Source: Candidatus Micrarchaeaceae archaeon (lineage in GTDB: Archaea; Micrarchaeota; Micrarchaeia; Micrarchaeales; CABMGC01). Taken from it: DNA of 64,000 nucleotides. The stretch lies in the NCBI GenBank assembly GCA_038878295.1, contig JAVZVY010000001.1:42163-106162 (forward strand), written 5' to 3'. A model generated the notes under the pieces. It was not told where the DNA came from, ran no database searches, and saw nothing but the letters and a program-made list of their open reading frames with translations. The translations under genes and the position numbers were made by a program. Shown here piece after piece: positions 21,325 through 39,334 of the stretch (its first letter is position 1; each line of letters opens with the position of its first letter).

Positions 21325-24042
21325 TCATGATTTAACATTATGCACAACATTATTCTGAGTGGTCTTGATCGAGAAGTTTTCTTTTCTGAAAGCAGCGTAT
21401 AGCGGCTCTTCTAGCTCTCTGTTTCTTTCCAGTGTTGCTCGCAATATTGGCTTGTACGTGCTTTTGATTGTTTTGTTATTATGCAAATCGATTTCGGTTA
21501 TTGCAAATCCTCTTGTTGCATCGCTTATCGCTTGCGGAAATTCAGAGACATACGTGTTTTCGTCTTCATACTGCATTGCCGGAGTTTCAAACGTTTGAAG
21601 ATCGCCGCTTATAGTATGCTTAGGCTCGTGGTAGTGAGCCTCAAACACAGCTGCGACAGGCACACGTTTTTGCAGTATCGCTTGCGGCTTTTGTTCGAGT
21701 GCTCTGGCAAGTTTATGCTGAACCCTTATTGTATCTTCATTATCTATGTTTATGTTGCCTATGCCATAGTCTTCTCCAGTAACAACTATTACTCTGCCTT
21801 CACTTACGCCTTTGCCTTTCAGGTAGAGTTTGATTATGCCAGCTAGTTCAGTGGCCTCATCGTACTCGTGTGTTTTGTTTGTTTTATTGAAGTGATTGCC
21901 ACTGACTATCCATATATAGCCATTTTTGTTTATAGTTTCATCTATTACTGGCAAAAGTTTTTGAATTACAGATTCAGCTTGGGCACTTATGGTTTGTATG
22001 ATGCTCACTCTGTTGAAGAACTTGACAAGCTCTGCGTTTATCTGATCGCCACTTAATCCGAGCTTTTGGAGATAGTTACGATATTCGTAGAAGGTGTTTG
22101 GCAATGTAAGCTGCTGTGGCGAATTTTTGAAGTTTGCTAGGTTACCTTCTATTATGTCACCATTAAGCAGCAATATTGGAATCCTACTAGAATCCAAATT
22201 GTGTATGTACTCTTTGCCTTTTTGTACAGCTTTTTCAAGCAAATCGTTTTCGGCCCAGCCACCCTCGTGGATGTCGCTCATTGCAACCACTGCAAGTTTC
22301 TTGATGTTATTTGGAATCTCCTTAGCCGCATATGGTATAAGCTCCAATATCTGCTTTGTTGAAAGCTTCGGAATTTCGTAACTCTTTAACTCTGATGGTC
22401 TCTTTTGCTCCAGGATGAGTTTTTCCAGTTTTGGGTCTTTGACTATCTCTTCGGCTTCCGTATCTGCAGTATGACTGCTTTGCGCAGTTTTGTTTGCTTT
22501 TTTGAGTTTGATCAGTTCTGTTGCCACGGCAAGCTCTCTTTTGTCGGCTTCAATGCGTTTTATCTTTAGAAACTCGCTCGTGATTGAGGTATGCGCAACA
22601 GAGCCATCTGGAAATATATCAACTATGCTTGCTGAAGAATCTGGAGGGAGCTTTTCTACGGTTTTTGTGGTTCTTGTGATTATTTTTTGGTTATACAGCT
22701 CGCCAAGCGCTTCTCTGTCTGCAAATGTGCCTTTTGCGAGCGATACGAATATTTTTTCCCTGTCAAGATCTAAAGTTGGCTCAATGGAGAATGATGTAAA
22801 AACATTTCCGCCGCTGATGAGCATTGTTAAAGGTTTCTGCAATACTTCCCTTTTGCCTATTGTTTCAACATACTTGTAAAAGTTGTCAGCGGCTAAGGTG
22901 TTGCTATTTTTATTGTACATCTTTGATGATGTGCCTAGTATCGGCTCCGCCTTCAATGCTATTGTGAATTCAAAGCCGTTTAGCTTTTTTTCTAAAAATT
23001 TTATGTCTTTCTCTTGTATCGTGACTCTGTGCTTCCTGTCTATGTCTTTTATGAGAGAGTAATAGTCGATCTTCGCAAGATTATATATCATCTTTTCAAT
23101 GTCTGGCTTGCTTCGCACATTGTGCGTAAACGCTTCTATGTGCGCCGATCCGCGCCTTACCATTGATTCAAATTCAAGATTCCCTAACTCGCGAAGTCGC
23201 TTGTTCGCGGCTCTTATCAAGTTCGATATCGCTTTTTTTTCACTTGTAGCTTTCTGAAAGGCTTCTTCGCTGCCATTGCCATTGTTTAGGGATCTGGTCT
23301 TTTCACGCTTCTCGTCGAGCTCTTTTTTCAACTTTGCTATCATCGCTTTGAGTTTATCCTGACTTAGCCTTTCCACGTGCGCTTCCACCAGCTCTTTCAG
23401 CATCTTAGCTCTTTCCTTATATTCCGCACGCTCTGCCTCGTTGATCTTAAGCTTCTCATTTGCATTCCTGTATTCCTCGATCAACCTCTCGTCTTTTGGA
23501 TTTTTATCAATCTGCTCCCTAAGTGCCGCAATCGAAGCTTTTGTGCTTTTTATTATCGCTGATGAGGCGCTGATGCTTGTATACATCCTTTCAAGCTCAT
23601 TCTGAAGCCATTTATGCCGGTGGCTATAGGCTATGCGCAAGTCTCTTGCTATAGCCTCTATATTTTGTGAATCCGCAATTCCAGGCACAAAATATATTTC
23701 CGGATCATTAAGGGCTTTGTTTAATCTTTCAACATGCGGTTTGATTATTGCAGGCACGCTTACCATGAAGTTGATGCCCTCTTTAATCATAAGAAGTTGA
23801 CTTTCGTGCTCATATTGTGGAATCCAGGGGATAAGTCCCGAATGCCCGCCGAAGTATACAACCATGTCTGGTTTTTGCACATTAGGGTCATTGAAATATT
23901 CTGCCAGGCCTATAAAATTGTCTGGGCTGAAAGCATACGTACCGGCAAAGAGATCGGATAGAACAAGAATTCTATATGGACGCGCGCCACCCTTTACGGG
24001 CGTGTTTAGCGAAATAGGAGTTTCCGCTATTTTATCCCCCAC
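21325..24042 (-). CDS. Large coiled-coil protein with N-terminal degenerate and C-terminal intact metallophosphoesterase domains
   Basis: 905 aa, GTG start, no Cys. C-terminal motifs AMSDIH (aa 587-592), NGDIIEGN (627-634), SGNHF (714-718), EAHYHE (801-806). N-terminal look-alikes lack the ligands: ILVLSDLF (aa 25-32), YFGGHSG (63-69), VPGIAD (119-124). K/E/R/L heptad-rich segments at aa ~145-295 and ~495-560. Confidence 0.7.
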   Translation of the reverse strand: MGDKIAETPISLNTPVKGGARPYRILVLSDLFAGTYAFSPDNFIGLAEYFNDPNVQKPDMVVYFGGHSGLIPWIPQYEHESQLLMIKEGINFMVSVPAIIKPHVERLNKALNDPEIYFVPGIADSQNIEAIARDLRIAYSHRHKWLQNELERMYTSISASSAIIKSTKASIAALREQIDKNPKDERLIEEYRNANEKLKINEAERAEYKERAKMLKELVEAHVERLSQDKLKAMIAKLKKELDEKREKTRSLNNGNGSEEAFQKATSEKKAISNLIRAANKRLRELGNLEFESMVRRGSAHIEAFTHNVRSKPDIEKMIYNLAKIDYYSLIKDIDRKHRVTIQEKDIKFLEKKLNGFEFTIALKAEPILGTSSKMYNKNSNTLAADNFYKYVETIGKREVLQKPLTMLISGGNVFTSFSIEPTLDLDREKIFVSLAKGTFADREALGELYNQKIITRTTKTVEKLPPDSSASIVDIFPDGSVAHTSITSEFLKIKRIEADKRELAVATELIKLKKANKTAQSSHTADTEAEEIVKDPKLEKLILEQKRPSELKSYEIPKLSTKQILELIPYAAKEIPNNIKKLAVVAMSDIHEGGWAENDLLEKAVQKGKEYIHNLDSSRIPILLLNGDIIEGNLANFKNSPQQLTLPNTFYEYRNYLQKLGLSGDQINAELVKFFNRVSIIQTISAQAESVIQKLLPVIDETINKNGYIWIVSGNHFNKTNKTHEYDEATELAGIIKLYLKGKGVSEGRVIVVTGEDYGIGNINIDNEDTIRVQHKLARALEQKPQAILQKRVPVAAVFEAHYHEPKHTISGDLQTFETPAMQYEDENTYVSEFPQAISDATRGFAITEIDLHNNKTIKSTYKPILRATLERNRELEEPLYAAFRKENFSIKTTQNNVVHNVKS

Positions 24043-26276: not shown

Positions 26277-26492
26277 TTATCTCTTAAAATTTCTTATCTT
26301 CTTCTGAAGGTAGGTTTTTCTTATGTCCTCATGAAGGTTGTTAACTGAAATGCTTCTATCGCGCATCAAGCTTTTAATGCTGCACTGTTCCGCAATCTCC
26401 TTTGCAAATGCATATGCAGCCAGTATACCAAATGCTACTGCTGTGCCTATATATATGTAATCATTGAGCTGCAGTATTGATATTATTTCCAT
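26277..26492 (-). CDS. Small single-pass membrane protein (71 aa)
   Basis: One hydrophobic helix (IYIGTAVAFGILAAYAFA) followed by a basic tail. Located between two tRNA genes. Confidence 0.4.
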   Translation of the reverse strand: MEIISILQLNDYIYIGTAVAFGILAAYAFAKEIAEQCSIKSLMRDRSISVNNLHEDIRKTYLQKKIRNFKR

Positions 26493-26524: not shown

Positions 26525-26612
26525 TCCCGTTGGGGTGAATTGAACACCCAACCTGCCGGTAACCACTCAAGCAAGCTACAGCCGGCCGCTCTAGCCATTG
26601 AGCTACAACGGG
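26525..26612 (-). tRNA. tRNA-Tyr(GUA) with a 15-nt canonical intron
   Basis: Minus strand. Acceptor CCCGTTG/CAACGGG, with the C1:G72 pair expected for archaeal tRNA-Tyr. D-arm GCTC..GAGC. Anticodon stem GCCGG/CCGGC, loop CTGTAG|intron|A. T-arm GGGTG-TTCAATT-CACCC. Discriminator A. Confidence 0.85.
26561..26575 (-). other. tRNA-Tyr intron (15 nt)
   Basis: CTTGCTTGAGTGGTT inserted after G37. The central helix CTGT/GTGG is mostly G:U, so the BHB is weak. Confidence 0.6.
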
Positions 26613-26655
26613 CTAACGCACATATTTATTATATTTATAGATAGCTATAAAAATT

Positions 26656-29445
26656 ATGGAGAACAAGCGCACTGCTAACAAGGCAACAGCAGATGCACAA
26701 AATACCGCCAAGACCCTCATGCAATTTGGTCGAAGAGCTAAGACAAAAAAAGGCGCCCAGAGAGCTAAGATGACGCCGCTCTCAATCTACTGGTTCAGAG
26801 ATGTTGTAAGCGACTTCATAAAGAGGCCCAATTTTTCCGATGCAATTGCGGTGGTCTTCGCCATAACAAGCATATCTTTTGCGATGCCTTTCTACCCGCT
26901 GCCGCTGCTCATCGCTCTGATTGTTGTGTTGTTTGTGCTTACGCTCCTTCATCCGCTGATAGGGCTGATGGGTCTGCTCTTCGGCTCGCTGCCCATATTC
27001 ATATACCAGGCGCCGCTCCTTGCTTGGATTTTCACGCTTTTTATGAGCGTTTCACTCTTTTTGGGCTACAGGCACTACAGAACCATAACTTCGATATACC
27101 TGCTAATGATGCTGCCTTTGTCTTATCTAGGTTACTTTTTAGAGATACCGGCATTTGCACTGTCGGTCTTGAGGATAGGGCTCAAGAGAGGACTTGTCAT
27201 GGCAATAGTGGTGGTGCCACTGGTGGTTATGCTATCTGGAGTAATGAACATATCGAATTCGGGAAGCATTGCGTACAACCAGACTCCGGCATACACGAAG
27301 ATATCTAGCTACAACATAAGGAGCATTCTCACGCCGAGCAAGCCCGCACAGAATTTTTCGACTCTTGGAGCGGCCTGGTCATCATCTGCTGCATCTTTCG
27401 TGAGTTTCAACACAACAAACAAGCTCTATGATGGTTTTGGCGCGCTCTTTTTGCCGCTCACTTTTCAGGCTCCAGAAACATTCATACAACTTGTCGCGTG
27501 GGTGCTTGTAGTTTTCATGATGGTGAACTTTGCCATAAAAAGCAGATCAAAGTACACAGGCGCTGAAGCAAGCCTCTTCAGCGTAATCATACCGATAGTG
27601 TATGTAGCGGTGTCGCTGTTCTCGCACACAAACATATCAATTTATCCGATACTCAGCTTCGTGGCCACACCCATAGTGCTTCTTCTGATGGAGTTTGGCG
27701 ACATACATGTCGTACAGGCTTTGGATATAATGAAGAAGGACGTCAGGGAAAAGTTCGGAGAAGCTTTCGAGGACCTCAGCATGGGCACTACAGAGACCTT
27801 GGACGATGTCGCAGACTACGAAAACACGAAGCAGGAGCTTAAGCAGGCGCTGCTTGAGCCCATAGAGCATAGGGAGCTCCAGGGTCTTTACAATGTTAAG
27901 CCTGCAAAGGGCATATTGCTCTTCGGGCCGCCAGGCACAGGCAAGACATATATGATGCGCGCGCTCGCAAACGAGGTAAGAGCGGGCTTTTATTACATAA
28001 AAACTTCTTCGATCATATCGCCTTATCCCGGAGAAGGCTCGCAAACTTTGTCCAGGATATTTGCGACAGCTAAGAAGCATGCGCCTTGCGTTCTGTTTCT
28101 CGACGAAATAGACGCGATAGCTTCTAGCAGGGAGCTTCAGGAAAGCGGTACAATAAAAGAGATGTTCTCAACGCTTCTTGTAGAGATGGACGGCTTCCAG
28201 AAAATAGAAGGCGTCGTTGTGGTCGGCGCAACGAACATGCCTCACGTTCTCGACCCGGGTATAATGAGGCCCGGTAGGTTCGACAAAATAATATACATGC
28301 CGCTGCCCGACATGAAAGGCAGGATGGCCATATTCAAGTACTACCTTGAAAAACTCCCAATTAGCGATGACATTGATTATGCAAAACTTGCATCGATTTC
28401 GGAGCGGTATAGCCCTGCCGACATAAAGAATGTTTGCGAAGAAACGGCAAGGAGGGTTTCCGAAGAGGCAATTAGCAAAAACAAGGCGATAGAGATAAGC
28501 ATGTCTGATATAGTCGATGTGATAAAGGTGATCAAGCCTTCGACATCGCTGGCCCAAATTGAGGAATACAACACTTTCCAGATGGACTATGAGAGGAGGA
28601 CATACAGCGAAGGCAAGGACAAAAGCACTGCGGAGGTAAAAATGGATGATGTTGTAGGCCTTGAAAGCGCCAAGAAAGCGCTATACGAAGCGGTTGAGAT
28701 ACCGATACTGCATCCAGAACTGATAAGGAAGTATGATATAAGAAATATAAGGGGCATATTGCTCTTCGGGCCGCCAGGCACAGGCAAGACCATGCTTATG
28801 AGAGCCATAGCTAACGAAGTCGGAGACGTTCACATGCTTACGATATCTGGAGCTGAAATAAGCAGGGTTGGCGCCGAGAGGGCCATGCTAATGATAAAGC
28901 AAACTTTTGACAGAGCCAAAGAAAACGCTCCATCAATAATATTCGTCGACGAGATAGACGCGGTTGTTCCAGCAAGGGACAAGGCCACTGAGCAAGGGTT
29001 GCAGCTCACTGGCGAGTTTCTTGAGGAATTCGATGGGCTCAAAAGCGATTACAATATAGTGGTTGTGGGCGCCACGAATAGGCCAGATGTACTCGACACG
29101 GCTTTGATACGAGCCGGAAGGTTCGATAAGATCATATACATAAAACCACCTGAAAAAGAGGAGCGAGCGAAAATATTCGAACTGAATCTCAAAAATGCGC
29201 CGTACGAAAAAAACATCGATTTCGAAAAGCTCGGGGAAATGACGCAGGGCTTTACCGGCGCTGATATAGCCAACGTATGCAGGCAGGTAAAGATGAATGT
29301 TCTTGAGAGGAGCCTGCAGGGAGGCGGTGACGAACTCATAACTTTTGACGACATAGCTAAAGTCATACAGAACACGAAGCCATCTGCCCCATCGCAGGCT
29401 ATAAGCAGGTATTTGACGTTTCTAGCGCTATACGGGCAGCGCTAA
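26656..29445 (+). CDS. Polytopic-membrane-anchored tandem AAA+ ATPase (Cdc48/VAT-like D1-D2 without the soluble N domain)
   Basis: 929 aa. At least 8 hydrophobic helices within aa ~60-345, plus a sequon-rich loop (NIS, NQT, NFS, NTT). Two AAA modules: GPPGTGKT at aa 424-431 and 705-712; Walker B LFLDEID and IFVDEID. Confidence 0.85.
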   Translation: MENKRTANKATADAQNTAKTLMQFGRRAKTKKGAQRAKMTPLSIYWFRDVVSDFIKRPNFSDAIAVVFAITSISFAMPFYPLPLLIALIVVLFVLTLLHPLIGLMGLLFGSLPIFIYQAPLLAWIFTLFMSVSLFLGYRHYRTITSIYLLMMLPLSYLGYFLEIPAFALSVLRIGLKRGLVMAIVVVPLVVMLSGVMNISNSGSIAYNQTPAYTKISSYNIRSILTPSKPAQNFSTLGAAWSSSAASFVSFNTTNKLYDGFGALFLPLTFQAPETFIQLVAWVLVVFMMVNFAIKSRSKYTGAEASLFSVIIPIVYVAVSLFSHTNISIYPILSFVATPIVLLLMEFGDIHVVQALDIMKKDVREKFGEAFEDLSMGTTETLDDVADYENTKQELKQALLEPIEHRELQGLYNVKPAKGILLFGPPGTGKTYMMRALANEVRAGFYYIKTSSIISPYPGEGSQTLSRIFATAKKHAPCVLFLDEIDAIASSRELQESGTIKEMFSTLLVEMDGFQKIEGVVVVGATNMPHVLDPGIMRPGRFDKIIYMPLPDMKGRMAIFKYYLEKLPISDDIDYAKLASISERYSPADIKNVCEETARRVSEEAISKNKAIEISMSDIVDVIKVIKPSTSLAQIEEYNTFQMDYERRTYSEGKDKSTAEVKMDDVVGLESAKKALYEAVEIPILHPELIRKYDIRNIRGILLFGPPGTGKTMLMRAIANEVGDVHMLTISGAEISRVGAERAMLMIKQTFDRAKENAPSIIFVDEIDAVVPARDKATEQGLQLTGEFLEEFDGLKSDYNIVVVGATNRPDVLDTALIRAGRFDKIIYIKPPEKEERAKIFELNLKNAPYEKNIDFEKLGEMTQGFTGADIANVCRQVKMNVLERSLQGGGDELITFDDIAKVIQNTKPSAPSQAISRYLTFLALYGQR
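27909..27947 (+). repeat. 39-nt perfect intragenic repeat, copy 1 (D1 Walker A region)
   Basis: gggcatattgctcttcgggccgccaggcacaggcaagac, identical to 28752..28790. Encodes GILLFGPPGTGKT. Confidence 0.9.
28752..28790 (+). repeat. 39-nt perfect intragenic repeat, copy 2 (D2 Walker A region)
   Basis: Identical to 27909..27947 in the same reading frame. Flanking codons diverge immediately on both sides. Confidence 0.9.
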
Positions 29446-29450
29446 TGCAA

Positions 29451-30233
29451 TCATGTGCCAGAACGGTCGATTTTTTGCATTCTTGACCTGAATGTGTCAC
29501 TTGCCAGTATCCTTGAATAATCGTCAGCGTGGATTTCCAGTGAGGCGTTGCCGTTTTTCACAGAGGCGTATTCTACCTTTATGTAGTTTCCCGGATGAAG
29601 CACAGCCGCATAACCGCTCGAAAGGCCCCACAATACCAGCGGCATCTCAATTGCACCGTCGGTTATCGCGCACCTTACGACTCCGCGCTGACGTGACTTA
29701 AGATCCGTAAAATAGTGTACGCTTCCTATAGAGAGAAGCTTGGCTATTATGTCTATGTTTTTCATCCCGGAACTGAGTTGCGAAAAGTCGCTTATGCCTC
29801 CTAGCGCGGGCTTTGTTCTGAAGAAAAATGTTGCGGAAGTCGTGGAAAATTCGGTGGAATCCTGCCATTTTTTGACAGATAGAGCTTTTGCAAGTATGTT
29901 GTCGTTTCTTTCAATAAGCATATTGTCGACAAGGTCTGCATATTTTCTCCATAGCACGACTCGTACAGGATTTCTCTCTTCGCCAAGAAGCATTAGCCTG
30001 AAATAGTTACCAGCACCGCCCCCTTGCACGGCCGTCTTGTTGAGCACTTTTATTACTTTGCCATCAAGATCTACAACCGACCCCTCAGCTATGTTTTCTG
30101 GCACGCTGGATGCGGATATCCTTTCAAAAATGCGTTGGTTTTTTGTGTCGAGCATTGATTTTGCCATCTCTCTGTTTATTAGCCCGTAGCGCTCGTCAAT
30201 GGCGTTCTGTATGTCTGAAGAAACTTCCTGCAT
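29451..30233 (-). CDS. Putative RPA-like ssDNA-binding protein with two OB-fold-like repeats
   Basis: 260 aa. Two segments have the OB pattern: VVDLDGKVIKVLNK...NPVRVVLWRKYADLV and IDIIAKLLSIGSVHYF...GAIEMPLVLWGLSS..GNYIKVEYASV. Judged by pattern only. Confidence 0.45.
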   Translation of the reverse strand: MQEVSSDIQNAIDERYGLINREMAKSMLDTKNQRIFERISASSVPENIAEGSVVDLDGKVIKVLNKTAVQGGGAGNYFRLMLLGEERNPVRVVLWRKYADLVDNMLIERNDNILAKALSVKKWQDSTEFSTTSATFFFRTKPALGGISDFSQLSSGMKNIDIIAKLLSIGSVHYFTDLKSRQRGVVRCAITDGAIEMPLVLWGLSSGYAAVLHPGNYIKVEYASVKNGNASLEIHADDYSRILASDTFRSRMQKIDRSGT

Positions 30234-30264: not shown

Positions 30265-31632
30265 TTACCTGGCTATGCCTACAAGGAAGGAGGCAGCATT
30301 GCTTGCCAAACTAATTATTGGCATCGGGTAGATGCCAAAGACCACAATCGCAGCAAAGCATATTGCAACGGCAACAGCTGTGCCGCGTTCCATCCTTATG
30401 GCGCGCGCATCCTTTTTGCCTGTATAGACCGCTATAAGGACTTTTCCGTAGTAGTAGACCGATATTACCGTGTTTATTATGCCAACGATTGCAAGCCAGG
30501 CCATGTTGGCTGATATCGCGCTAGAAAAGAGAAGGAATTTGCCTATGAAGCCCGCGGTAAAAGGTATTCCCATCAGTGAAAGCAGGAATACTGAAATGGC
30601 TATTGCGGCAAGCCTATTCTCGTTTCCAAGGCCTATGAAATCGTCTATCGACGTACGCCCTCTTGCTTCGAGCCATGAAATGATAGCCAATACGCCGATG
30701 AATGCGAACATGTGCGAGAAAATCTGGAATGAAGATGCTTCTATGCCTATCTTGGAGGCCGCGGCTATGCCTATTAATATGTAGCCGGCCTGCGAGATTG
30801 ACGAATAGGCCATCAGCCTCTTCATTCTTTCCTGAGAGAGCGCAGCGAGATTGCCAAAAAACATTGTGGCCGCGGCTAGAATAGAAACTACAAATGAGAA
30901 GATTATTCCAAACGATATGAATGCCAGAATCAAGACCTGCATCAGCGCTACGAAACCGGCTTTTTTGTTTACTCCGCCAAGCATTGCGGTTATGTTTGCC
31001 TCTGCACCTTGATATACGTCAGGGACCCACATGTTGAATGGGAATATTGAAGCCTCAAAGCCTATCGAAGCTATGAACAGTATAGAAGCAAAAATTAGGA
31101 GCGTGCTTTCAGGGTGACCCGAAAGGGCTATGCTGCCAGTAGAACCGTAGAACAGCACAATGGCGAACGAGAGTGTCGCCACCGATATAGAAGACATTAC
31201 GAAGAACTTTGTGGCGGCCTCTAGCCCCCTTCTATTGAGAAGCAGTATGAATACAGTAGGCAGGGAGATAAGCTCTAGCCCTATCAGTATGGTCACAAGC
31301 GAATTGGCAAAAGCAACCAGATACATGCCTAGAAGCGCAAAGTCGCTGAGAAGCGCGAAATCTTTGTATTCGGCAGAGCCATAAACGATAAGATTCACAA
31401 GCAGCATCGAGACGCTGAAGAGAAGCATGAAGAATAGCGAAAACGGATTTACTGAAACGGAATTAAAATAGGTGCCGCTCGCGCCGAGCGAGATGGAAAT
31501 GCAGATTTCCGCAGATAAAGCGGCCAAGAGCGCAATGTTGAACGCGATTTGGTATTTGGGCGTGGCAAATCTCATGACTATGCTTCCGAATAGCAGAATT
31601 GCAAGCGTAACCATGAAATATTCTATTATCAT
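30265..31632 (-). CDS. nuoN: NADH-quinone oxidoreductase subunit N (antiporter-like)
   Basis: 455 aa polytopic protein. Last gene of the nuo operon. 4-nt overlap with nuoM. Confidence 0.85.
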   Translation of the reverse strand: MIIEYFMVTLAILLFGSIVMRFATPKYQIAFNIALLAALSAEICISISLGASGTYFNSVSVNPFSLFFMLLFSVSMLLVNLIVYGSAEYKDFALLSDFALLGMYLVAFANSLVTILIGLELISLPTVFILLLNRRGLEAATKFFVMSSISVATLSFAIVLFYGSTGSIALSGHPESTLLIFASILFIASIGFEASIFPFNMWVPDVYQGAEANITAMLGGVNKKAGFVALMQVLILAFISFGIIFSFVVSILAAATMFFGNLAALSQERMKRLMAYSSISQAGYILIGIAAASKIGIEASSFQIFSHMFAFIGVLAIISWLEARGRTSIDDFIGLGNENRLAAIAISVFLLSLMGIPFTAGFIGKFLLFSSAISANMAWLAIVGIINTVISVYYYGKVLIAVYTGKKDARAIRMERGTAVAVAICFAAIVVFGIYPMPIISLASNAASFLVGIAR

Positions 31633-33044
31633 ATCGATGCACCAAGACTTCCGAGCAGCACCTGAGGGATCACACCGAATGCGATTATAGAAGCAACTAG
31701 AATAAACATAGATGCATATAAGCTTAAGCTTGGATACGAGAGCACCCTAGAAGGCTGCTGCGGCGATAGGAATGATCTTCCAATAAGCCAGAAAAGATAC
31801 GCACCATTGATTATAAGCATCGCCAGCGGCACGAGCCCGAGCAGGGAAAAAGCCATGAAACCGCCTATCGCTATAAGGATGTCGTTTATGAAACCAGAAG
31901 TAAGCGGCAGACCTACCGCGGCGAAGACTCCGAAAAGCGCCAGGTAAGAAATTATAGGCATTGCATTTACTATGCCGCGAAGCATTTTTATCGTTGTGGT
32001 TCCAATTGCTTTGTCGATCGCATACGCAACCAGGAAGAGCAGTGAAATTATCATAGCATGACTCAGCATGCCGAATAGAGCGCCGGAAAAACCGTAGATG
32101 TTCATTTCGGATATGCCGAAAGCTATGAAACCCATCTCGGCTATGCTCAGGTATGAGAACATTCTTTTTATTTCCTTCTGGGAGAGAGCTACAGCTGCGG
32201 AATATATTATTGAGAAGGCTATTATTGGGGCTAAGTAAACAGCATACGTCTTTGCTATTGGAAGAATTGTGAAAAGAATGAGCATGCCGTAAGCGCCGAA
32301 CTTTGAGAGCACACCTGCGAGTAGCATGCTGCCTGCCGGCGAAGCCTCGGAATATGCGTCAGGCGCCCAAAGATGGAACGGGAATATAGGTATTTTAACC
32401 ATGAACGCTATTATGAGCAGCACAAAAATTGCGGTTTGAGTGGTTGCCGGCAGCGACGAAGCGCCAGCAGAAATCGCTGCTATGTTGAACGTATGCACGG
32501 GCATGCTGAAATAAAGAAGCAGTATGCCTACAAGAAGCAGGCCGCTGGAAAATATTGAATATGCCAGAAACTTAATTGAGGCGTACCTTCTATCGTATCC
32601 GCCGAAGTGGAAAATTATGAAGAAAAGCGCAATTATGCTCGCTTCCCAGAATATGAAAAACAGGAATAAATTTGATGAGAGGAACAAGCCGAGCGTGGTG
32701 GCTTCGGTTATCAGGAAAAGAGCGTTGTAGCTTCTGCGCTCCTCCTTAGTGAAAAAGCCATTGGCGAATGAAGCCGCTAGGAAAACTATTGAAGTTAGAA
32801 GCACAAGGAAAACAGATACTGCGTTAAGCTCGAGACTTATTTGTATCGAGAACGGAGCGATATAGCTGAAGGATTCGCTTATGTTGCCTGATACTTTGAA
32901 TATATAAAAGGAGAAAAATGCAAAAGCGATTTCAATGAGCGTTGCGATTATAGATACCTTGCTAGAATAGCTCTCCCGGATGGCGAAGAGGGAGGCTGCT
33001 CCAAGCAATGGTATCAGCAGCATCAAAAGCAAAATAGGTATCAT
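31629..33044 (-). CDS. nuoM: NADH-quinone oxidoreductase subunit M (antiporter-like)
   Basis: 471 aa polytopic protein with the HLWAPDAYSEA motif. 4-nt overlaps on both sides. Confidence 0.88.
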   Translation of the reverse strand: MIPILLLMLLIPLLGAASLFAIRESYSSKVSIIATLIEIAFAFFSFYIFKVSGNISESFSYIAPFSIQISLELNAVSVFLVLLTSIVFLAASFANGFFTKEERRSYNALFLITEATTLGLFLSSNLFLFFIFWEASIIALFFIIFHFGGYDRRYASIKFLAYSIFSSGLLLVGILLLYFSMPVHTFNIAAISAGASSLPATTQTAIFVLLIIAFMVKIPIFPFHLWAPDAYSEASPAGSMLLAGVLSKFGAYGMLILFTILPIAKTYAVYLAPIIAFSIIYSAAVALSQKEIKRMFSYLSIAEMGFIAFGISEMNIYGFSGALFGMLSHAMIISLLFLVAYAIDKAIGTTTIKMLRGIVNAMPIISYLALFGVFAAVGLPLTSGFINDILIAIGGFMAFSLLGLVPLAMLIINGAYLFWLIGRSFLSPQQPSRVLSYPSLSLYASMFILVASIIAFGVIPQVLLGSLGASI

Positions 33045-34810
33045 CGCACCACTATCAACAACACGTAAACCATAAGCGCCGCGAAGCCGATCCAGAATGC
33101 TATCATGTAGCTGCTAAGCTGGCCGTTGACAGATCGCCTAGTTGCTTCCCCAAATGCAAGGGTGACATGGCCCAACCAGTCCAACGCCTCATTGAAGTAG
33201 TAATCGAACATACCTACGCCTTCGCTGATAAGATAAACGAATTCGCAGAAAAAGGAGTATAAGCTTTTCATCAGAATGCTGTTGTAAATGATTAAATTGA
33301 GTTTCTGAACATTCGCCTTGAGGCTGCCCTTGGAGAAGGCGAGATAGCCTATGTATGCACCAGCTGCTACGATTGCTGTTTCTATTGCTGCTCCGAAGAT
33401 CGAAATACCTGATGAAGAATTCGCGGAAACGGCTCTGATTATCGGCAGGTATGCGAATGAGGCTGCAATGGCGAGCGCTGCGAGTACTACCATAGGGTAT
33501 TTCATGCTTATCGGAGTGCTATCGTAATTTATTTCTGTTTCTATGCTCCTCTCCTTTTTGCTTATCAGGAATAACCACCTGAAGATGAAGAAACTGGTGC
33601 CAAGAGATATTAGTAGCATTATGGCATATGCTGCGATGTTTGTAGAAAAGGCTGCGCCTATGCCCAGGTTTGAGAAGAACGTGTCAAACGGAACAAAGCC
33701 AGCGAGGGCAAGCACCCCGAAAACGGTTGATATATAGATAAGCTTGTTGCGCTTCAGCCCAGAAATCTCATATATGTCTTCTTTGCCAGTTGCGTCCATA
33801 ACTGCTCCGCTGCTGAAGAAAATGAGCGCTTTGTAGAATGCCTGCGCGAAGAAGAAATACACCGCAGCGGCAAGGGCACCAACTCCTACCGCAGCAAGCA
33901 TTATGCTAAGTTCAGCAATGGTCGAATATGCTGGAATGCGCTTTATGTGCTTTTCCTGCATGGCGTTGAGCGTTGCAATTACTGCAGTGGCCATTCCAAA
34001 AACCGTAAAGAGCAGCATCGCCGTTTTAGAGCTCGAAAATATTGGGAATAGCAGAATCGCAACGAAAACTCCAGCTTTGACCATCGTTGAAGAATGAAGG
34101 AACGCTGAAACTGGTGTTGGTCCTTCCATGGCGTCAGGAAGCCACTCGTGGAAAGGAAACTGCGCAGATTTAGTGAAAATTGCTATCATAAGTAATGCAA
34201 TCGCGCTTGCCGGCACAGGCACTGCCCCTGTCGCGGCTGTTGACGCCTTGATTATGCTTGAAAATTCAAGCGTTCCGTATGCATTCCAAAATATGGCAAT
34301 AGAAGCCAGGAGAGCTATGTCACCTATGAGCACGATCGTTATCGCTTCCCTCGCCGACACTGTCGCTTTCTCCCTTCCATGCCAAAATCCTATGAGCAGG
34401 TAGCTGGTCAGGCTCAGAAATTCCCAGGCTATGAAAAGCGTTATGAAGTTGCCAGAAATCGCGAAAACGAGCATCGCAACGTAAAAAGCTAGCATTTCTT
34501 CATGGAACCTTTTCTGCTCGCTAGGTTTCTTCATGAATCCTGCCGAGTATATGAAAATCAGCGGCGCTATTATGAGCACCATGTAGAGCAATATCATGTT
34601 GAGCGTGCCCACGCTTATCGATATATGAAACGTGGCTCCGGCTACGCTGAACCATGTTATTGAGCTTGTGCCTTCGCTGACAAATGGCAAAAGCGCAAGG
34701 TTAGCTATTGAAGCTGCTATTGATAGGTATGCAACGTGGCGCCAACCGCGTATGAAAGGTATTATTAGCATCGCGACAAGAGGCGCAACTATGAGCGTTA
34801 TAGGCAACAT
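33041..34810 (-). CDS. nuoL: NADH-quinone oxidoreductase subunit L (antiporter-like)
   Basis: 589 aa. FHEWLPDAMEGPTPVSAFLHSSTMV motif and a long C-terminal extension. Confidence 0.9.
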   Translation of the reverse strand: MLPITLIVAPLVAMLIIPFIRGWRHVAYLSIAASIANLALLPFVSEGTSSITWFSVAGATFHISISVGTLNMILLYMVLIIAPLIFIYSAGFMKKPSEQKRFHEEMLAFYVAMLVFAISGNFITLFIAWEFLSLTSYLLIGFWHGREKATVSAREAITIVLIGDIALLASIAIFWNAYGTLEFSSIIKASTAATGAVPVPASAIALLMIAIFTKSAQFPFHEWLPDAMEGPTPVSAFLHSSTMVKAGVFVAILLFPIFSSSKTAMLLFTVFGMATAVIATLNAMQEKHIKRIPAYSTIAELSIMLAAVGVGALAAAVYFFFAQAFYKALIFFSSGAVMDATGKEDIYEISGLKRNKLIYISTVFGVLALAGFVPFDTFFSNLGIGAAFSTNIAAYAIMLLISLGTSFFIFRWLFLISKKERSIETEINYDSTPISMKYPMVVLAALAIAASFAYLPIIRAVSANSSSGISIFGAAIETAIVAAGAYIGYLAFSKGSLKANVQKLNLIIYNSILMKSLYSFFCEFVYLISEGVGMFDYYFNEALDWLGHVTLAFGEATRRSVNGQLSSYMIAFWIGFAALMVYVLLIVVR

Positions 34811-34811
34811 T

Positions 34812-35117
34812 CTACCACTTCGTAGAAGAAAGCTTTCTTATGTCAAAGTCCTGAAGCCTATGCTTCATGACCATGTAAATGCCGACGAAAGTTATTGTTT
34901 CTGCAGCAACAAGCGACCATATCACAATTAGAAGCAAGGCAGCGCCTGACGCATTTGGACTTGCAGCGGAGAAAAATGCGACCAATGCAATTGTTGAAGC
35001 CACAAAGATAAGTTCTATGGCAAGCACTATTTCTATGAAATGCCTGCTCGAAAGCGCGCCGGCTACGCCTATTGAAAAGATTGCAACTGCGAGTGCGATA
35101 GGGTATGCCAGCAACAT
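34812..35117 (-). CDS. nuoK: NADH-quinone oxidoreductase subunit K
   Basis: 101 aa, three TM helices, in the correct operon position. Confidence 0.85.
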   Translation of the reverse strand: MLLAYPIALAVAIFSIGVAGALSSRHFIEIVLAIELIFVASTIALVAFFSAASPNASGAALLLIVIWSLVAAETITFVGIYMVMKHRLQDFDIRKLSSTKW

Positions 35118-35590
35118 CAGACCACCAACTTGACGAACTTCTTTATCACGAGTATGCTGCCTATAGCAGCTCCGAAGAGCATTGTAACGGCAAAGAAAAG
35201 TATCAAATACATGCTCGAAAAGTCGCTTGAAAATTCGTTTGTGAAGCTGTTAGCGTGCGTGCCTAGCGTCGGCAGCTGCACGAGAATTATGCACATCAGC
35301 AAGCCTATGGCCAGCGCAGCCGTCAAAAGCTTAGGAAGATGCGCCCTTTCGTTTTCCTTGTATTCTACAGCGACAACCGTTATCAAGTATGCTGATATGC
35401 CGCCTATGAAAACAAGGAGCTGCAGAAGGCCGACAAAGGGCTGGCCGAGAAGCATGAACAGGAATGCGCTCGAGGCGAAAACCAAAGACAGGTATATTAC
35501 AGAGTAGAGCAGCTTTCTGGATACGAAAATCAGCACTGCCGGGATTACCGCAAGAGCTGATATCAGCGTGAAAAGTATCGCACCAAGCAT
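35117..35590 (-). CDS. nuoJ: NADH-quinone oxidoreductase subunit J
   Basis: 157 aa membrane protein between nuoI and nuoK. 1-nt overlap with nuoK. Confidence 0.8.
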   Translation of the reverse strand: MLGAILFTLISALAVIPAVLIFVSRKLLYSVIYLSLVFASSAFLFMLLGQPFVGLLQLLVFIGGISAYLITVVAVEYKENERAHLPKLLTAALAIGLLMCIILVQLPTLGTHANSFTNEFSSDFSSMYLILFFAVTMLFGAAIGSILVIKKFVKLVV

Positions 35591-35594
35591 CTTA

Positions 35595-35957
35595 TCATCT
35601 AAGTTCCTCTGGTCTCTTTATGAGTTCGCGCCTATCATACACCACCAGGTTGTCGTACTCTTTCGTTAGAGTAAGGCAATGCGGCGGGCATACCTCTTCG
35701 CAAAGACCACAAAGCAGGCACCTCTCGTGATTTACAAGAGGCATCTTCTTTGTGCCGCGCTCGGTCTCGGTGTCGACCATCGTTATCGTCTTGTTTGGGC
35801 ATATCCTCTCGCAGGCGGCGCAGCTTATGCACGTGTGTATGTCAAGCCTTAGCATACCGCGATAGGAATCTGGAAGCTTCTCCCTTTTTTCAGGGTATTC
35901 TGTAGTGAATCTTTTTTCCAACGCGTTCTTAATCGTTTTGCTAAGCGGATCAAGCAC
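35595..35957 (-). CDS. nuoI: NADH-quinone oxidoreductase subunit I (2x[4Fe-4S] ferredoxin)
   Basis: 120 aa. CISCAACERICP and CLLCGLCEEVCP. Confidence 0.9.
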   Translation of the reverse strand: MLDPLSKTIKNALEKRFTTEYPEKREKLPDSYRGMLRLDIHTCISCAACERICPNKTITMVDTETERGTKKMPLVNHERCLLCGLCEEVCPPHCLTLTKEYDNLVVYDRRELIKRPEELR

Positions 35958-35969
35958 CGTTTAACCAAC

Positions 35970-36980
35970 CTACTTCACAAGCAGCAAAAATATTGCCGCT
36001 ATGTTTATTATCGCAAGGGGAGACAGCCACATCCATCCCAGTCTGAGGATGCGGTCTATCCTCATTCTTGCTGTTGCAACCCTTATCAGTATAACAAATA
36101 ATGCTATTATGAAAACCTTAATAAAGAGCCATACTATTCCTGGAAGAAGCGGGCCGAGCCAGCCTCCAAAAAAGAAGATTGCTATGAGCATGCTCCCAAG
36201 AAGCATTCTCGTGTAGTCGACAAACAGGCCGAAGCCGTAATACGGCGAGCTTACGTCGGTAAGCCAGCCAGCTATAAGCTCAGAATCGGCTTCCCTTACG
36301 TCAAAAGGCGGCCTTTCGAATTCGGCAAGCATTGCGACGAAGAACACAAATAGGCTTATAGGCGCGAAGATGAAAAAATAGCCGGAGCTCTGCATGCTTA
36401 CTATTGTTTGGAAATTGTAGCTGTTAGCAAGCAGTATTACCGAAGCGATAGCAAGCAGCATCGGCATCTCGTAAGCTATAAGCACGAGTATCGACCTTTG
36501 GGCGCTTATCGCCCCGAATTTGTTGCCGCTGGAGAAGCCCGCAAGGAATATGAACACCGGCATAAATGATATCACTACGAAGACCAGAAGCACTCCAAGG
36601 CTGATGCTTGAGGCTGCCACACCCTGCGAGAATGGGATTATTGCAACAAGAAAAATAAGCAGCGACAGCACTATTGGAATGGATACCGGAAACAATATCC
36701 GGTCTGCGCTGTCTGGCTGGATGTGCTCTTTTGAGAACAGTTTGAGAACGTCGGCAAGATTCTGGAGTATGCCGAATTTGCCCACGTATGTAGGACCGTG
36801 CCTCGACTGTGTCTTTGCCACTACCTTTCTTTCAACCCATCCGAAAGTGTAATCGAAAACCGCTATCACAATAAAAATGGCTATGAAGTAAAGAACGAGC
36901 GATATTATTTCCGTTGCGAGGCTTGAGCTACTTATGCCAATGATTCTTGAAACCGCGCTTTCGATGCTATCTATCAACAT
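35970..36980 (-). CDS. nuoH: NADH-quinone oxidoreductase subunit H
   Basis: 336 aa. QSRHGPTYVGKFGILQNLADVLKL and FERPPFDVREADSELIAG motifs. Confidence 0.92.
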   Translation of the reverse strand: MLIDSIESAVSRIIGISSSSLATEIISLVLYFIAIFIVIAVFDYTFGWVERKVVAKTQSRHGPTYVGKFGILQNLADVLKLFSKEHIQPDSADRILFPVSIPIVLSLLIFLVAIIPFSQGVAASSISLGVLLVFVVISFMPVFIFLAGFSSGNKFGAISAQRSILVLIAYEMPMLLAIASVILLANSYNFQTIVSMQSSGYFFIFAPISLFVFFVAMLAEFERPPFDVREADSELIAGWLTDVSSPYYGFGLFVDYTRMLLGSMLIAIFFFGGWLGPLLPGIVWLFIKVFIIALFVILIRVATARMRIDRILRLGWMWLSPLAIINIAAIFLLLVK

Positions 36981-38061
36981 CAGCCATCACCAAATCCAAG
37001 CTCCCAAGAATAGCGAAAAGATCCGCAAGCCTGTTTCCCTTTGCGAGATAAGGCAGCACAGAAAGGTTTATGAAAGGCGCAGACCTAAGCGCTATCCGGT
37101 AAGGCTTTTGCTTGTCAGTAACGAGGTAAGCCATTCCTTCGCCCCTCGGAAGCTCCCTGTATGAAATCGCAACTTGTTTCTTTGGGCTTGGTATTATCAG
37201 CTTTATTCTTGAACCCCGCGCGTCGCCTGCCGGAATCTTTTTGAGAGCTTCCCTGACCAGCTTGATGCTTTCTTTCATCTCCTTCATCCTTACCTTGTAT
37301 CTTGCAAAAGAATCTCCAGCAATCTCAACTTGGGGTTCGAAATGCAATTTGCTGTAAACATAATATGGCCTTGCGCTTCTTACGTCGTATGCTACGCCAG
37401 AGCCTCTCAGCACAGGCCCTGTAACGCCGTATTCTATAGCATCCTTTCTGCTCAGTATGCCGACTTTTCGCGTCCTCTCCAAAAAAACCGGGTTCTTTTC
37501 CAGAAATTGCTCGTATTCTTTTATCTTTTTCTCAACCGAATCAAGAGTGGCTAAAGCATGCTCCTCAAACCCAGGAGGCAAATCGTACAGCACGCCACCA
37601 AGGCGGATGTTCACGTAGAACATCCTGCTTCCAGCGGCTTCTTCAAGCAGCGAAAGAACTTTGTCTCTTTCGCGCATCGTCCATATGAAAAGCGTGAACA
37701 TCACTCCTATGTCGTTGGCCATTGTACCCAACCAAAGCAAGTGACTCGCGATTCTCTGAAGCTCGAGCATGATTACTCTTACGTACTGTGCCCTTTCGTT
37801 GACGCTGATGCCCATAGCGTCCTCAAGCGCTGCAACATAAAGCTCAGGGTAAGCCATTGGCGCCGCATAGTCTATCTTTTCCAAGTAGACTATGTTCTGC
37901 ATGTACATTCTGTTTTCCATGAGCTTCTCCACACCCCTGTGAAGGAAGCCTATATGCGGTTCGACGTTGACTATCGTGTCGCCGTCTACGTCAACTACGA
38001 GCCTGAGCACTCCGTGCGTGCTCGGGTGCACGGGGCCGATGTTGATTCTTGTAACGGTCAT
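36967..38061 (-). CDS. nuoD: NADH-quinone oxidoreductase subunit D
   Basis: Start moved to ATG 38061 (MTVTRINIGPVHPSTHGVLRL), 4 nt after the nuoC stop. The ORF-track start at 38124 would overlap nuoC by 59 nt. Confidence 0.92.
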   Translation of the reverse strand: MTVTRINIGPVHPSTHGVLRLVVDVDGDTIVNVEPHIGFLHRGVEKLMENRMYMQNIVYLEKIDYAAPMAYPELYVAALEDAMGISVNERAQYVRVIMLELQRIASHLLWLGTMANDIGVMFTLFIWTMRERDKVLSLLEEAAGSRMFYVNIRLGGVLYDLPPGFEEHALATLDSVEKKIKEYEQFLEKNPVFLERTRKVGILSRKDAIEYGVTGPVLRGSGVAYDVRSARPYYVYSKLHFEPQVEIAGDSFARYKVRMKEMKESIKLVREALKKIPAGDARGSRIKLIIPSPKKQVAISYRELPRGEGMAYLVTDKQKPYRIALRSAPFINLSVLPYLAKGNRLADLFAILGSLDLVMADVDR

Positions 38062-38065
38062 TTGC

Positions 38066-38428
38066 TCAAACCCTGTATTTAGAGCCCCAAGCAAAGCTTT
38101 TTCTAAGCGGGGCATCGACGCCATCCCACTTTTCGAGCAGAAGGCGCTTTGTATTTCTGCCTTCTATCAATATGCCGAACATTTCGTGCAGCTCTCTTTC
38201 ATACCAGTCAGCGGCTTTGTAAATTGGCACTATCGTAGGCACGGAAAGGTCTTCGTTTGGCAAATCTACTTCAACGATTTCATCCTTTCTCTTTTCTATG
38301 TCTCTCAGGAAATACAATACCTGGACATGATCTTGATAATCAACTGCGGTTATCTTGACTAGGTATGAGAAGCCTTTGGCTTTAAGCTCATTTATGGCTT
38401 CTATAACATTGCCTCTTTCAACTTTCAT
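38066..38428 (-). CDS. nuoC: NADH-quinone oxidoreductase subunit C (short form)
   Basis: 120 aa. [19 protein letters not shown]. Overlaps the nuoB end by 11 nt. Confidence 0.85.
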
Positions 38429-38972
38429 TCCTCTTCACCTTTTCCTGAAGCTTCATCAGGGCTTCGAACAGATTCTCAGGCCTTGGCGGACAGCCGCCTA
38501 CATAAACGTCAACTGGGAGAATCTGGTCTATACCTTCTATTATATTGTAGCTTTCGAACCATGGCCCTCCAGAGGTGGCGCATTCGCCGTATGCTATCAC
38601 ATATTTTGGGCTAGACATCTGCTCGTAAAGCCGTTTCATTTCAGGCGCCACAGATTTTGTTACCCAGCCTGCAACTATCATGACATCGCACTGCCTAGGG
38701 CTTGCCCTGAATAGAAGGTAGCCCTTGCGCTCGGCATCAATCCTTGCTGAGCCGAAGTCCATAAGCTCCATGGCGCAGCATGCGAGCCCGAACTGCATGG
38801 GCCAGAGAGAATTCGACCTCGCCCAGTTTAGAGGACCGCTTGCCGCAGCTTTTGCAAAATCAGAAAGCTTCAAGAAGAATGCGCTCTTTTTTGGTTTGTA
38901 TGTCTTGAGAGATTCCAGCACGAGCCTGTCCATCTCCTGTTTCGCATTTTCGAATCTTGTCTCTTCGTCCAT
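38418..38972 (-). CDS. nuoB: NADH-quinone oxidoreductase subunit B
   Basis: 184 aa. [28 protein letters not shown] (cluster N2 ligands). Confidence 0.93.
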
Positions 38973-38977
38973 TTATG

Positions 38978-39334
38978 TCACCTCTCGCGCATATGAGCGA
39001 TTGCCATGGCTAACACTGAAAAAAATGCGGCCATGATCAGAAGGGCTATAACAGCAATGCCGTCCGCAAAGGTCATGCTTCTTGCTATAGACGCCCAGAT
39101 AAGCGTTACAATGGCCACTATTTCAAAGCCGAGAAATACTGGAAAGTAATGGGCGTATTCGAAAGGCATGCTTACGGTTTCGCCTATGCTTCCTTCTGCA
39201 CTCTCGTAGCTCGAGTTCTTTACGGGATTGCCTTCGCTCTCACGCCTTACAAGTTTTGAAAACAGGAGCAATGCGAATATTACCGCAAATGAACAAACAG
39301 CCATGACCGCAACTGCGAGGTAGCTATTTATCAT
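38978..39334 (-). CDS. nuoA: NADH-quinone oxidoreductase subunit A
   Basis: 118 aa, three TM helices. Loop YESAEGS occupies the place of the usual YECG. First gene of the operon. Confidence 0.8.
   Translation of the reverse strand: MINSYLAVAVMAVCSFAVIFALLLFSKLVRRESEGNPVKNSSYESAEGSIGETVSMPFEYAHYFPVFLGFEIVAIVTLIWASIARSMTFADGIAVIALLIMAAFFSVLAMAIAHMRER

Follow-up and report, generated by a model that had tools for sequence, protein, structure and literature searches.

A family of tandem AAA ATPases with a polytopic membrane domain in Micrarchaeota

The stretch of DNA analyzed in this work (the window; 64,000 nucleotides, positions 42,163 to 106,162 of contig JAVZVY010000001.1 from a Candidatus Micrarchaeaceae archaeon, GenBank assembly GCA_038878295.1) encodes at 26656..29445, on the plus strand, a membrane-integral tandem AAA ATPase. 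The coding sequence starts with ATG and continues without interruption for 929 amino acids (aa) plus stop, the single open reading frame that a first-pass annotation of the letters had reported. Its product joins an N-terminal polytopic membrane domain, through a conserved linker helix, to two complete AAA modules, D1 and D2; this identity and this architecture are near-certain. What appears to be new is a membrane domain of unmatched fold together with a tandem AAA lineage independent of Cdc48, while the kind of machine, a membrane-anchored AAA unfoldase, would be a familiar one. A motor for extraction or translocation remains the most reasonable reading of the protein. By analogy with characterized AAA machines we tentatively propose a hexameric membrane-protein dislocase or remodelling unfoldase, a proposal to which we give slightly less than an even chance.

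Public annotation of the family is generic ('Cdc48', 'transitional endoplasmic reticulum ATPase' from the Joint Genome Institute (JGI), or 'AAA family ATPase'), and the orthologue in Ca. Micrarchaeum sp. A_DKE, Micr_00206, is assigned to arCOG01308 'Cdc48'. The first-pass annotation did not recognize the architecture as one described before. The literature on archaeal membrane-bound AAA proteins, on AAA proteins and the proteasome of Micrarchaeota and on Cdc48 with transmembrane helices likewise yielded no description of the family, and the databases hold only the generic names.

Domain architecture and predicted topology

Pfam recognizes two PF00004 AAA domains in the protein, at aa 420-550 and at about aa 701-830 (254 bits), together with two AAA_lid_3 domains. 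The membrane-proximal module D1 (aa 386-648; 27811..28599, plus strand as for all parts of the protein) presents its Walker A motif at aa 424-431, the acidic pair D483-E484, the sensor-1 residue N527 and the arginines R538 and R541. The membrane-distal module D2 (aa 663-929; 28642..29442) has these elements at aa 705-712, D765-E766, N808, and R819 and R822. The Walker A motifs beginning at aa 424 and aa 705 both read GPPGTGKT, and the Walker B motifs at aa 479-486 and 761-768 both follow the pattern hhhhDE (h, hydrophobic) and then ID, which confirms the two complete modules, with GPPGTGKT twice and DEID twice, of the first reading. Throughout the family (76 members compared) the Walker A Lys and Thr, the Walker B Asp-Glu, the sensor-1 Asn and both arginine fingers are retained by 75 or 76 sequences at all 14 positions of the two modules. 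Such retention of the catalytic residues argues that D1 and D2 both remain active ATPases whose active sites lie between subunits, and such sites in turn imply a ring oligomer.

The modules differ in their pore loops. Pore loop 1 of D1 (aa 455-460, SPYPGE; 28018..28035) is the sole conserved aromatic pore loop in the protein. Its consensus is S-[PA]-[YF]-x-G-E, with S455 found in 74/76 members, the aromatic Y or F at position 457 in 72/76 and G459 in 76/76. Pore loop 1 of D2, which reads S-R-V-G in the window, has no conserved aromatic residue among the 76 members. This distribution, with the aromatic loop in D1 and not in D2, is the reverse of that in p97.

The D1 and D2 modules align with one another from end to end at about 38-39% identity and are separated by a poorly conserved linker (aa 649-662; 28600..28641; column conservation 0.36). 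Their tails are also related: that of D1, Y-N-T-F-Q-M-D-Y-E-R-R, and the C-terminus of D2, F-x-x-x-Y-G-x-R (Y926 in 63/76 members, G927 in 71/76 and R929 in 64/76), share the motif Y-x-x-F-x-x-x-Y-[EG]-x-R, which is of the D2/Vps4_C type, and a Vps4_C-like element is matched at aa 610-644 (29 bits). An HbYX motif is not found at the C-termini of the family, whose tyrosine lies four residues from the end. Neither the Pfam nor the NCBIfam matches of the 929-aa protein include a protease domain, whose absence had also been reported at first.

The polytopic membrane domain (aa 60-347; 26833..27696) is delimited by hydropathy, by conservation and by structure prediction. Kyte-Doolittle windows exceed 1.6 over aa 60-138, 167-202 and 272-353. 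An AlphaFold2 (AF2) model of aa 1-385, computed on a 36-sequence alignment, is all-helical with a mean predicted local distance difference test (pLDDT) of 89 and a predicted template-modelling score (pTM) of 0.83; with five sequences only, the pLDDT was 41. The model places membrane helices at aa 60-76, 82-98, 100-118, 120-155, 159-174, 176-197, 272-295, 301-323 and 330-347, and a cytoplasmic helix at aa 355-377. Hydropathy and model are thus both consistent with the 'at least 8' hydrophobic helices first noted between about aa 60 and 345. Because its AF2 pLDDT reaches 89, the membrane domain is, at the level of the model, a real fold, and one that is unmatched among solved (PDB) and viral (BFVD) structures: the Foldseek comparison suggested for the N-terminal region returned no meaningful neighbour for the model (best E value 0.88 with TM ≤0.2 in PDB, and 0.29 in BFVD). 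The N-domain likewise has zero matches in Pfam (aa 1-355, E≤10), PHROG and PADLOC. A search with hhalign for internal repeats among the membrane helices gave probabilities below 4% throughout, and no known catalytic motif is present in the domain.

Sequence conservation within this domain is extensive. Family-specific motifs are Y117-Q118-x-P120-x-x-A-W124, G137-Y-x-H-Y-R142-T-I, E-I-P165-x-F, G175-x-K-R178 and S-R297-S-x-Y-K-G302, with E346 at the end. The residues conserved at 90% or more are D62, Y117, Q118, P120, W124, G137, Y141, R142, S156, G159, P165, G175, R178, R297, S298, G302 and E346, and the charged ones are placed at the cytoplasmic face. A conserved helix at aa 42-55 (26779..26820; P41, Y45 and K48-D49), supported by conservation and by the AF2 model, precedes the first membrane helix. 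Ahead of it lies a variable, K/R-rich tail (aa 1-40; 26656..26775; pLDDT about 50, column conservation 0.15) that is predicted to be cytoplasmic; aa 1-75 of the window protein contain 14 K+R, and the family mean is 9.9 within aa 1-59.

The linker helix (aa 348-385; 27697..27810), also cytoplasmic, joins the last membrane helix to D1. It carries the motif K360-Q-D362-x-R-x-K-F-G-E-A-F-E-D-L374, in which K360, D362, K366, F367 and G368 are again conserved at 90% or more. Column conservation over aa 349-385 is 0.70, compared with 0.71 and 0.65 for the two ATPase cores. Conservation of the linker on a par with the ATPase cores is an argument that the membrane domain and D1 are coupled mechanically and in a fixed manner.

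The predicted topology has both termini inside and the loop at aa 198-271 outside. It is based on the distribution of K and R, on the glycosylation-type sequons of that loop and on the ATPase, which is necessarily cytoplasmic; D1 would therefore abut the membrane. Lys and Arg are concentrated family-wide in the N-terminal tail and in loops 136-143, 173-179 and 294-302, are almost nil in loops 77-81, 99, 119 and 156-158, and are few (0.25) in loop 324-329. The outer loop (27247..27468), recognized by its sequons, the AF2 model and the K/R pattern, is modelled as a small helical domain. N-x-S/T sequons occur in it at aa 198, 208, 233 and 252; N208 is kept in 65/76 members. Across the family the density is 1.7 sequons per 100 aa in the loop versus 0.32 in the AAA part. 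The sequon-dense loop noted at first is accordingly present, with a five-fold enrichment over aa 198-271, and its outward side is a prediction. The chain would cross the membrane eight times if 120-155 and 159-197, both long helices, span it once each, and ten times if both are broken into two crossings.

Family distribution and a lineage apart from Cdc48

GTDB genomes, one for each species, were scanned for two motifs of the family, including that of the linker. Relatives are encoded in 116 species genomes, and 80 loci were kept, almost all of them labelled Micrarchaeota, Micrarchaeia or Micrarchaeaceae and among them the complete genome of the cultured A_DKE. Matches with a named source thus come almost entirely from a phylum of the DPANN archaea, the lineage that had been surmised. 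The gene is single-copy in every related assembly fetched. A few loci carry the labels Marsarchaeota, Methanothrix or Bryobacterales, probably because their bins were assigned wrongly; oddly labelled bins with family members are L045 (Bryobacterales; frameshifted), L052 (Methanothrix) and P0079 ('Candidatus Aquilonibacter'). The members in the Bryobacterales, Methanothrix and Aquilonibacter bins are most likely mis-binned Micrarchaeota contigs and not products of horizontal transfer.

The fusion of membrane domain and AAA motor is real and recurs across the family. The fused reading frame is complete in 75/80 loci, at about 825-947 aa counted from the first ATG and with a spacing of about 281 aa from one Walker A motif to the other, and the remaining loci are cut by a contig end or frameshifted. 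Family members are from 41% to 86% identical to the window protein, and the identity of the membrane N-domain falls to about 20% across the 116 species genomes with the fusion. With the N-terminal 375 aa as the query, a collection of 5.8 billion proteins gave five relatives only, of which P0001, P0003 and P0004 span the junction of membrane domain and AAA motor. A search of 1.84 billion representatives with a profile hidden Markov model of the N-domain returned 68 clusters, and every complete member is about 890-930 aa long when intein-bearing copies are excluded. Since all complete matches share the length and architecture of the fusion, the membrane domain occurs, among these representatives, solely fused to the AAA motor. 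Three longer members are the same protein with inteins in D1 (P0037, 1912 aa; P0055, 1403 aa; P0052, 1080 aa), inserted shortly after the D1 Walker A motif (Intein_splicing, with or without a LAGLIDADG homing endonuclease). P0037 appears to hold two inteins. Inteins are usually inserted at conserved sites of important proteins.

An assembly or gene-calling artefact, in which a membrane-protein gene had been joined to a soluble AAA gene, was the condition that could have undone this description, and its probability is now negligible. One deposited copy of the same protein, P0005, begins at aa 346, which coincides with the domain boundary; it is, however, a partial sequence and hence no sign of two genes. 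The identical full-length 929-aa protein (P0073) was deposited from a separate 25-kb contig of a Micrarchaeaceae metagenome-assembled genome at NCBI. This copy, the uninterrupted frame at 75/80 loci from different species and a junction that three of the relatives cross, and whose linker is among the best-conserved parts of the protein, exclude an assembly chimera and rule out a join of two genes.

By its two PF00004 and two AAA_lid_3 domains, and by the Walker, sensor-1 and second-region-of-homology (SRH) arginine residues retained in 75-76/76 members, the family belongs to the classical AAA clade. The best database matches are p97, Cdc48 and VAT, yet membership of the Cdc48 family is not supported. 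The whole protein scores 446.6 bits against TIGR01243 CDC48, for which the cut-off is 802.65, and the A_DKE orthologue reaches 565.3 against the KEGG K14575 threshold of 822.4. The CDC48_N (PF02359) and CDC48_2 (PF02933) domains, a double-psi barrel and a beta-clam, are found neither in aa 1-355 at E≤10 nor among the Pfam domains listed for 120 family matches, and the AF2 model of aa 1-385 is all-helical. Taken singly, the modules are almost equally similar to the CDC48, PAN and FtsH profiles (229, 221 and 212 bits for D1; 227, 203 and 199 bits for D2). When compared directly with p97 and VAT, D1 and D2 each score highest against the D2 half; on the TIGR01243 profile, too, D1 falls on the D2 half. 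Other families fare no better. The score against FtsH TIGR01241 is 406.8 bits (cut-off 600) and covers only profile positions 143-383 of 598; the 929-aa protein has no match to Peptidase_M41, and it lacks in Pfam and NCBIfam the Lon protease domain that would make it a LonB (arCOG02160). For CdvC (NF041006) the score is 346.8 against a cut-off of 650, and no MIT domain was found in the window protein. We also rejected an anti-phage defence ATPase (IetA/IteA, TRIP13-type): PADLOC IetA matches cover the AAA cores only and none the N-domain, NCBIfam IteA gives 223 against a cut-off of 510, and the family is conserved across the phylum as one copy per fetched assembly, with no IetS-like partner.

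The phylogenetic placement of D1 and D2 leads to the same view. We computed neighbour-joining trees, a simple distance method, with bootstrap from 215 columns of 18 D1 and 18 D2 modules of the family and a small reference set of seven modules (p97 D1 and D2, VAT D1 and D2, PAN 3h4m, FtsH 1lv7 and Vps4 6bmf). Neither module groups with its Cdc48 counterpart (0% of bootstraps for D1 and 0% for D2), and the family is nested within Cdc48 in 1%. Family D1 and D2 together form a clade with 51% support, and a split of the family plus Vps4 from the other references occurs in 90% of bootstraps; this grouping with Vps4 may be long-branch attraction. Identity of the family modules to each of the reference groups is 37-40%, whereas Cdc48 D1, Cdc48 D2 and PAN are 50-56% identical to each other. 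The bootstraps of 0%, 0% and 1% and the near-equal CDC48, PAN and FtsH scores are the reasons to regard the family, with its tandem classical AAA modules, as a divergent lineage of its own and not as a Cdc48 orthologue, a conclusion that is firm in direction and less firm in exact placement. The family possibly arose when a module whose tail was of the D2/Vps4_C type duplicated independently. A search for outgroups in the 1.17 Mb of retrieved Micrarchaeota DNA detected no other classical AAA genes. The first-pass description of a Cdc48/VAT protein with a replaced N domain therefore stands for the tandem AAA modules and the membranous N-terminal part, and does not stand for Cdc48 orthology.

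Mechanism and alternatives

The closest functional analogue of the mechanism proposed here is Msp1/ATAD1. These membrane-anchored classical AAA proteins, which have no protease, thread membrane proteins through a central pore; they differ in having a single helix and a single AAA module and in being eukaryotic, and no specific sequence relationship to the family was detected. Bcs1 (PMC10567702) and the PTEX pair HSP101-EXP2, AAA(+) motors in physical contact with an element in the membrane, carry proteins from one side of it to the other. Bcs1 differs by its one helix, one AAA module and heptameric state. PTEX is a multi-subunit assembly whose ClpB-type motor directs its C-terminal side toward the pore, whereas in the family the N-terminal side faces the membrane. 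With Cdc48, p97 and VAT the family shares two tandem classical AAA modules, each with AAA_lid_3, and VAT too has an aromatic D1 pore loop. Unlike them, it has a polytopic membrane domain in place of the substrate-recruiting CDC48_N/CDC48_2 domain; moreover, its D2 is without the aromatic pore loop on which the D2 of Cdc48 depends, and it has no HbYX tail. The MBA (membrane-bound AAA) proteins, known archaeal membrane-bound AAA+ machines described from Sulfolobus, have two N-terminal helices and one AAA module; our N-domain profile search gave solely the tandem architecture of 890-930 aa. The MBA cluster is listed in PMC3493965. FtsH and the m-AAA and i-AAA proteases resemble the family in being anchored in the membrane by their N-terminal part, in holding a classical AAA ring at the cytoplasmic face, in a per-module similarity (212 and 199 bits) nearly equal to that of Cdc48 and, presumably, in acting on membrane proteins that enter from the membrane side. 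FtsH has, however, one or two helices, one AAA module and an M41 zinc protease, compared with eight to ten, two and none in the family, and it is absent from archaea (PMC4343526). LonB, a known archaeal membrane-bound AAA+ machine (PMC4343526), consists of one AAA+ module, into which two helices are inserted, and a Lon protease domain. The single module that the first-pass annotation gave for membrane AAA proteases holds for every membrane AAA machine that we checked.

From the behaviour of the classical AAA proteins FtsH, Msp1, Cdc48/VAT and PAN, we infer how a dislocase of this architecture could operate. The protein would assemble as a hexamer, in which six linker helices and 48-60 membrane helices would keep the D1 ring directly beneath the membrane. 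The pore-loop tyrosines of D1 would grip a polypeptide segment offered at the cytoplasmic membrane face, and ATP hydrolysis would draw this segment from the bilayer, or from a complex within it, in the direction from D1 to D2 and into the cytoplasm. D2, with its full set of catalytic residues and no gripping aromatic, may serve as a further engine, or else as a ring for assembly and regulation. As the protein has neither a protease domain nor an HbYX tail, the unfolded chain would be set free to refold or reassemble, or would be handed to the 20S proteasome or LonB.

Support for the dislocase comes from the conservation of the catalytic residues, the aromatic pore loop confined to D1, the topology, the linker, the confidently modelled membrane domain found solely in the fused form, the spread over 116 species genomes, the missing protease domain and HbYX motif, the inteins and transcription of the gene. 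In A_DKE (Ca. Micrarchaeum harzensis), Micr_00206 is transcribed in co-culture at 0.63 transcripts per million (TPM), a level comparable to those of SufB (0.53) and Smc (1.4), with LonB at 2.5 (PMC8975820 Suppl. Data S5). Several points weigh against it. Micrarchaeota already own LonB and the 20S proteasome, so that the family is an additional machine, and an extra one for quality control is not obviously needed. An eight-to-ten-helix, novel and conserved fold exceeds what a tether needs (Msp1 and FtsH manage with one or two helices), and a membrane domain of this size hints at an intramembrane function such as a channel, a substrate receptor or lipid handling, for which a dislocase does not account. 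Finally, no co-directional neighbour conserved family-wide was found. Considered separately, the idea that the family substitutes for a missing LonB was rejected, as LonB is found both in A_DKE (Micr_00618) and in Mia14 (PMC5498576 Suppl. Data 4).

The main rival gives the membrane domain a more active part: six copies would line up with the AAA pore as a coaxial channel for proteins, and the whole would be an AAA-driven translocon comparable to Bcs1 or PTEX, either importing host or environmental proteins, which would enter at the D1 side and be pulled inward, or exporting surface or effector proteins. The same large, conserved and novel fold that is excessive for an anchor speaks for such a channel, as do the strictly conserved polar residues D62, R142, R178, R297 and E346, which cluster at the cytoplasmic face near the D1 entrance, and the confinement of the family to an episymbiotic, host-dependent phylum. 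In two divergent members the AAA gene also adjoins a co-directional gene for a large protein that is probably a surface protein (L081:9312-12230, 972 aa with a faint S_layer_C match; L083:1234-5883, 1549 aa with Big_13/TSP_3 matches). This surface-protein neighbourhood is, however, not conserved in the rest of the family, and all the membrane helices are strongly hydrophobic and show neither a polar face nor a core charge that is conserved. The direction of travel is a further difficulty. Classical AAA motors thread their substrate from the N-terminal to the C-terminal side, which here would mean import and not secretion, and we know of no precedent for the import of unfolded proteins across the archaeal cytoplasmic membrane. 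On balance we consider a translocon unlikely.

Gene neighbourhood bears mostly on another alternative, in which the protein is a dedicated assembly or maintenance factor for complex-I-type modules with NuoL/M/N antiporter-like subunits, comparable to Bcs1 for complex III or to FtsH/m-AAA as a kind of chaperone in the biogenesis of respiratory complexes. In 13 species (L008, L010-L013, L016-L018, L020, L024, L030, L032 and L036; e.g. L010:10677-12086) the AAA gene is directly followed by a NuoM-like gene (Proton_antipo_M, about 467 aa) that stands alone, with the gene after that on the opposite strand. The gap is -3 to +1 nt in 12/13 species and 48 nt in L008; this overlapping or abutting of stop and start suggests translational coupling in the 12. 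A NuoL/M/N-like gene lies at most four genes away in 33/76 loci. In the window and its closest relatives the AAA gene stands tail-to-tail with a nuo operon, with one OB-fold gene between (29451-30233, minus strand; 260 aa; weak tRNA_anti-codon match, 21 bits), and 5 nt separate the stop codons of the two convergent genes. On its own strand the OB-fold gene sits directly downstream of nuoN, and it is the most persistent neighbour of the family (28/76 loci, including Micr_00205/00206 of A_DKE). Against a dedicated factor, nuo genes adjoin the AAA gene in one half of the family tree only, and the other half, including A_DKE, has no nuo neighbour; the coupled arrangement is essentially that of one clade and may reflect one or two inherited rearrangements. 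Mia14, moreover, is reported to be without NuoI (PMC5498576 Suppl. Data 3), a point that would weigh here if Mia14 carries the AAA family. We hold a complex-I factor to be distinctly improbable. The same coupling also speaks for the dislocase, since a NuoM-like polytopic protein is the type of client to be expected of a dislocase or assembly factor.

The protein could lastly be a membrane-tethered proteasome activator, a counterpart of Cdc48/VAT or PAN that docks the 20S particle at the membrane for direct degradation of what is extracted. The Micrarchaeon Mia14 encodes both 20S subunits, alpha and beta, yet lacks PAN (arCOG01306 = 0; PMC5498576 Suppl. Data 4), Cdc48-type ATPases serve the proteasome in PAN-less archaea (PMC3493965), and the C-terminal tail of the family is conserved. 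Docking by HbYX, however, needs a penultimate Tyr, and the family ends in Y-G-x-R-COOH. Since the same motif also closes the internal D1 module, the tail would be a structural element of the module and not a docking peptide. Furthermore, the four arCOG01308 proteins of Mia14 (PMC5498576 Suppl. Data 4) leave soluble Cdc48 paralogues for the proteasome; they also led us to reject, for Mia14, the view that the family is the only Cdc48-class ATPase of Micrarchaeota. We regard a proteasome activator as very improbable.

Locus and significance

The AAA gene is solitary in the window. An A/T-rich, TATA-like stretch at 26622..26655 (plus strand), which reads ATATTTATTATATTTATAGATAGCTATAAAAATT and is followed directly by the ATG start codon, is probably an archaeal promoter, with a leaderless mRNA or one with a very short leader. 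Divergent from the gene and 44 nt upstream of its start is a tRNA-Tyr (GTA) at 26525-26612 on the minus strand; its 88 nt are long for a tRNA-Tyr and might include an intron or an extended arm. The 71-aa reading frame beside it (26277-26492, minus strand) is without a Pfam match and may not be a real gene. Beyond the OB-fold gene, a block of eleven genes occupies 30265-39334 on the minus strand. Its last three genes (30265-34810) are of the NuoL/M/N antiporter-like type; Pfam confirms Proton_antipo_M for 30265-31632 and 31629-33044, and the other genes of the block were assigned by eye from their translations, among which no NuoE/F/G-like genes are apparent. A further reading frame at 21325-24042 (minus strand, 905 aa) has zero Pfam matches at E≤0.001 and a long, charged, coiled-coil-like middle section.

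Membrane-anchored AAA machines are central to the quality control and biogenesis of membrane proteins. To our knowledge, those described (FtsH, Msp1, Bcs1 and LonB) all combine one AAA ring with a minimal anchor. The present family has instead, to judge from its conserved residues, two active rings and a large membrane domain that is confidently folded in the model and structurally unmatched. It is conserved in at least 116 species of an ultra-small, host-dependent archaeal phylum whose cell biology is almost unknown, and it is transcribed in one cultured representative, A_DKE. The public labels Cdc48, transitional ER ATPase and AAA family ATPase conceal both the membrane domain and the separate ancestry, and are corrected by this analysis. 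The family offers a new membrane fold for structure determination and a natural test of a type II AAA motor in which D1, and not D2, would do the gripping and would be clamped to the bilayer.

For the biology of DPANN archaea, the protein is a candidate machine for the turnover of membrane proteins or for exchange between host and symbiont. The second prospect leads to a wider possibility, which we consider doubtful: the six membrane domains may constitute a protein-conducting, or lipid- and protein-handling, portal welded to a double AAA motor, that is, an ATP-driven translocon in one polypeptide exclusive to Micrarchaeota, and this portal, in moving polypeptides across the membrane or out of it, may serve the dependence of these cells on their Thermoplasmatales hosts, for example through uptake of host proteins or through insertion and extraction of proteins at the interaction surface. 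If true, it would represent a new class of membrane transport machine and would provide a molecular handle on DPANN symbiosis.

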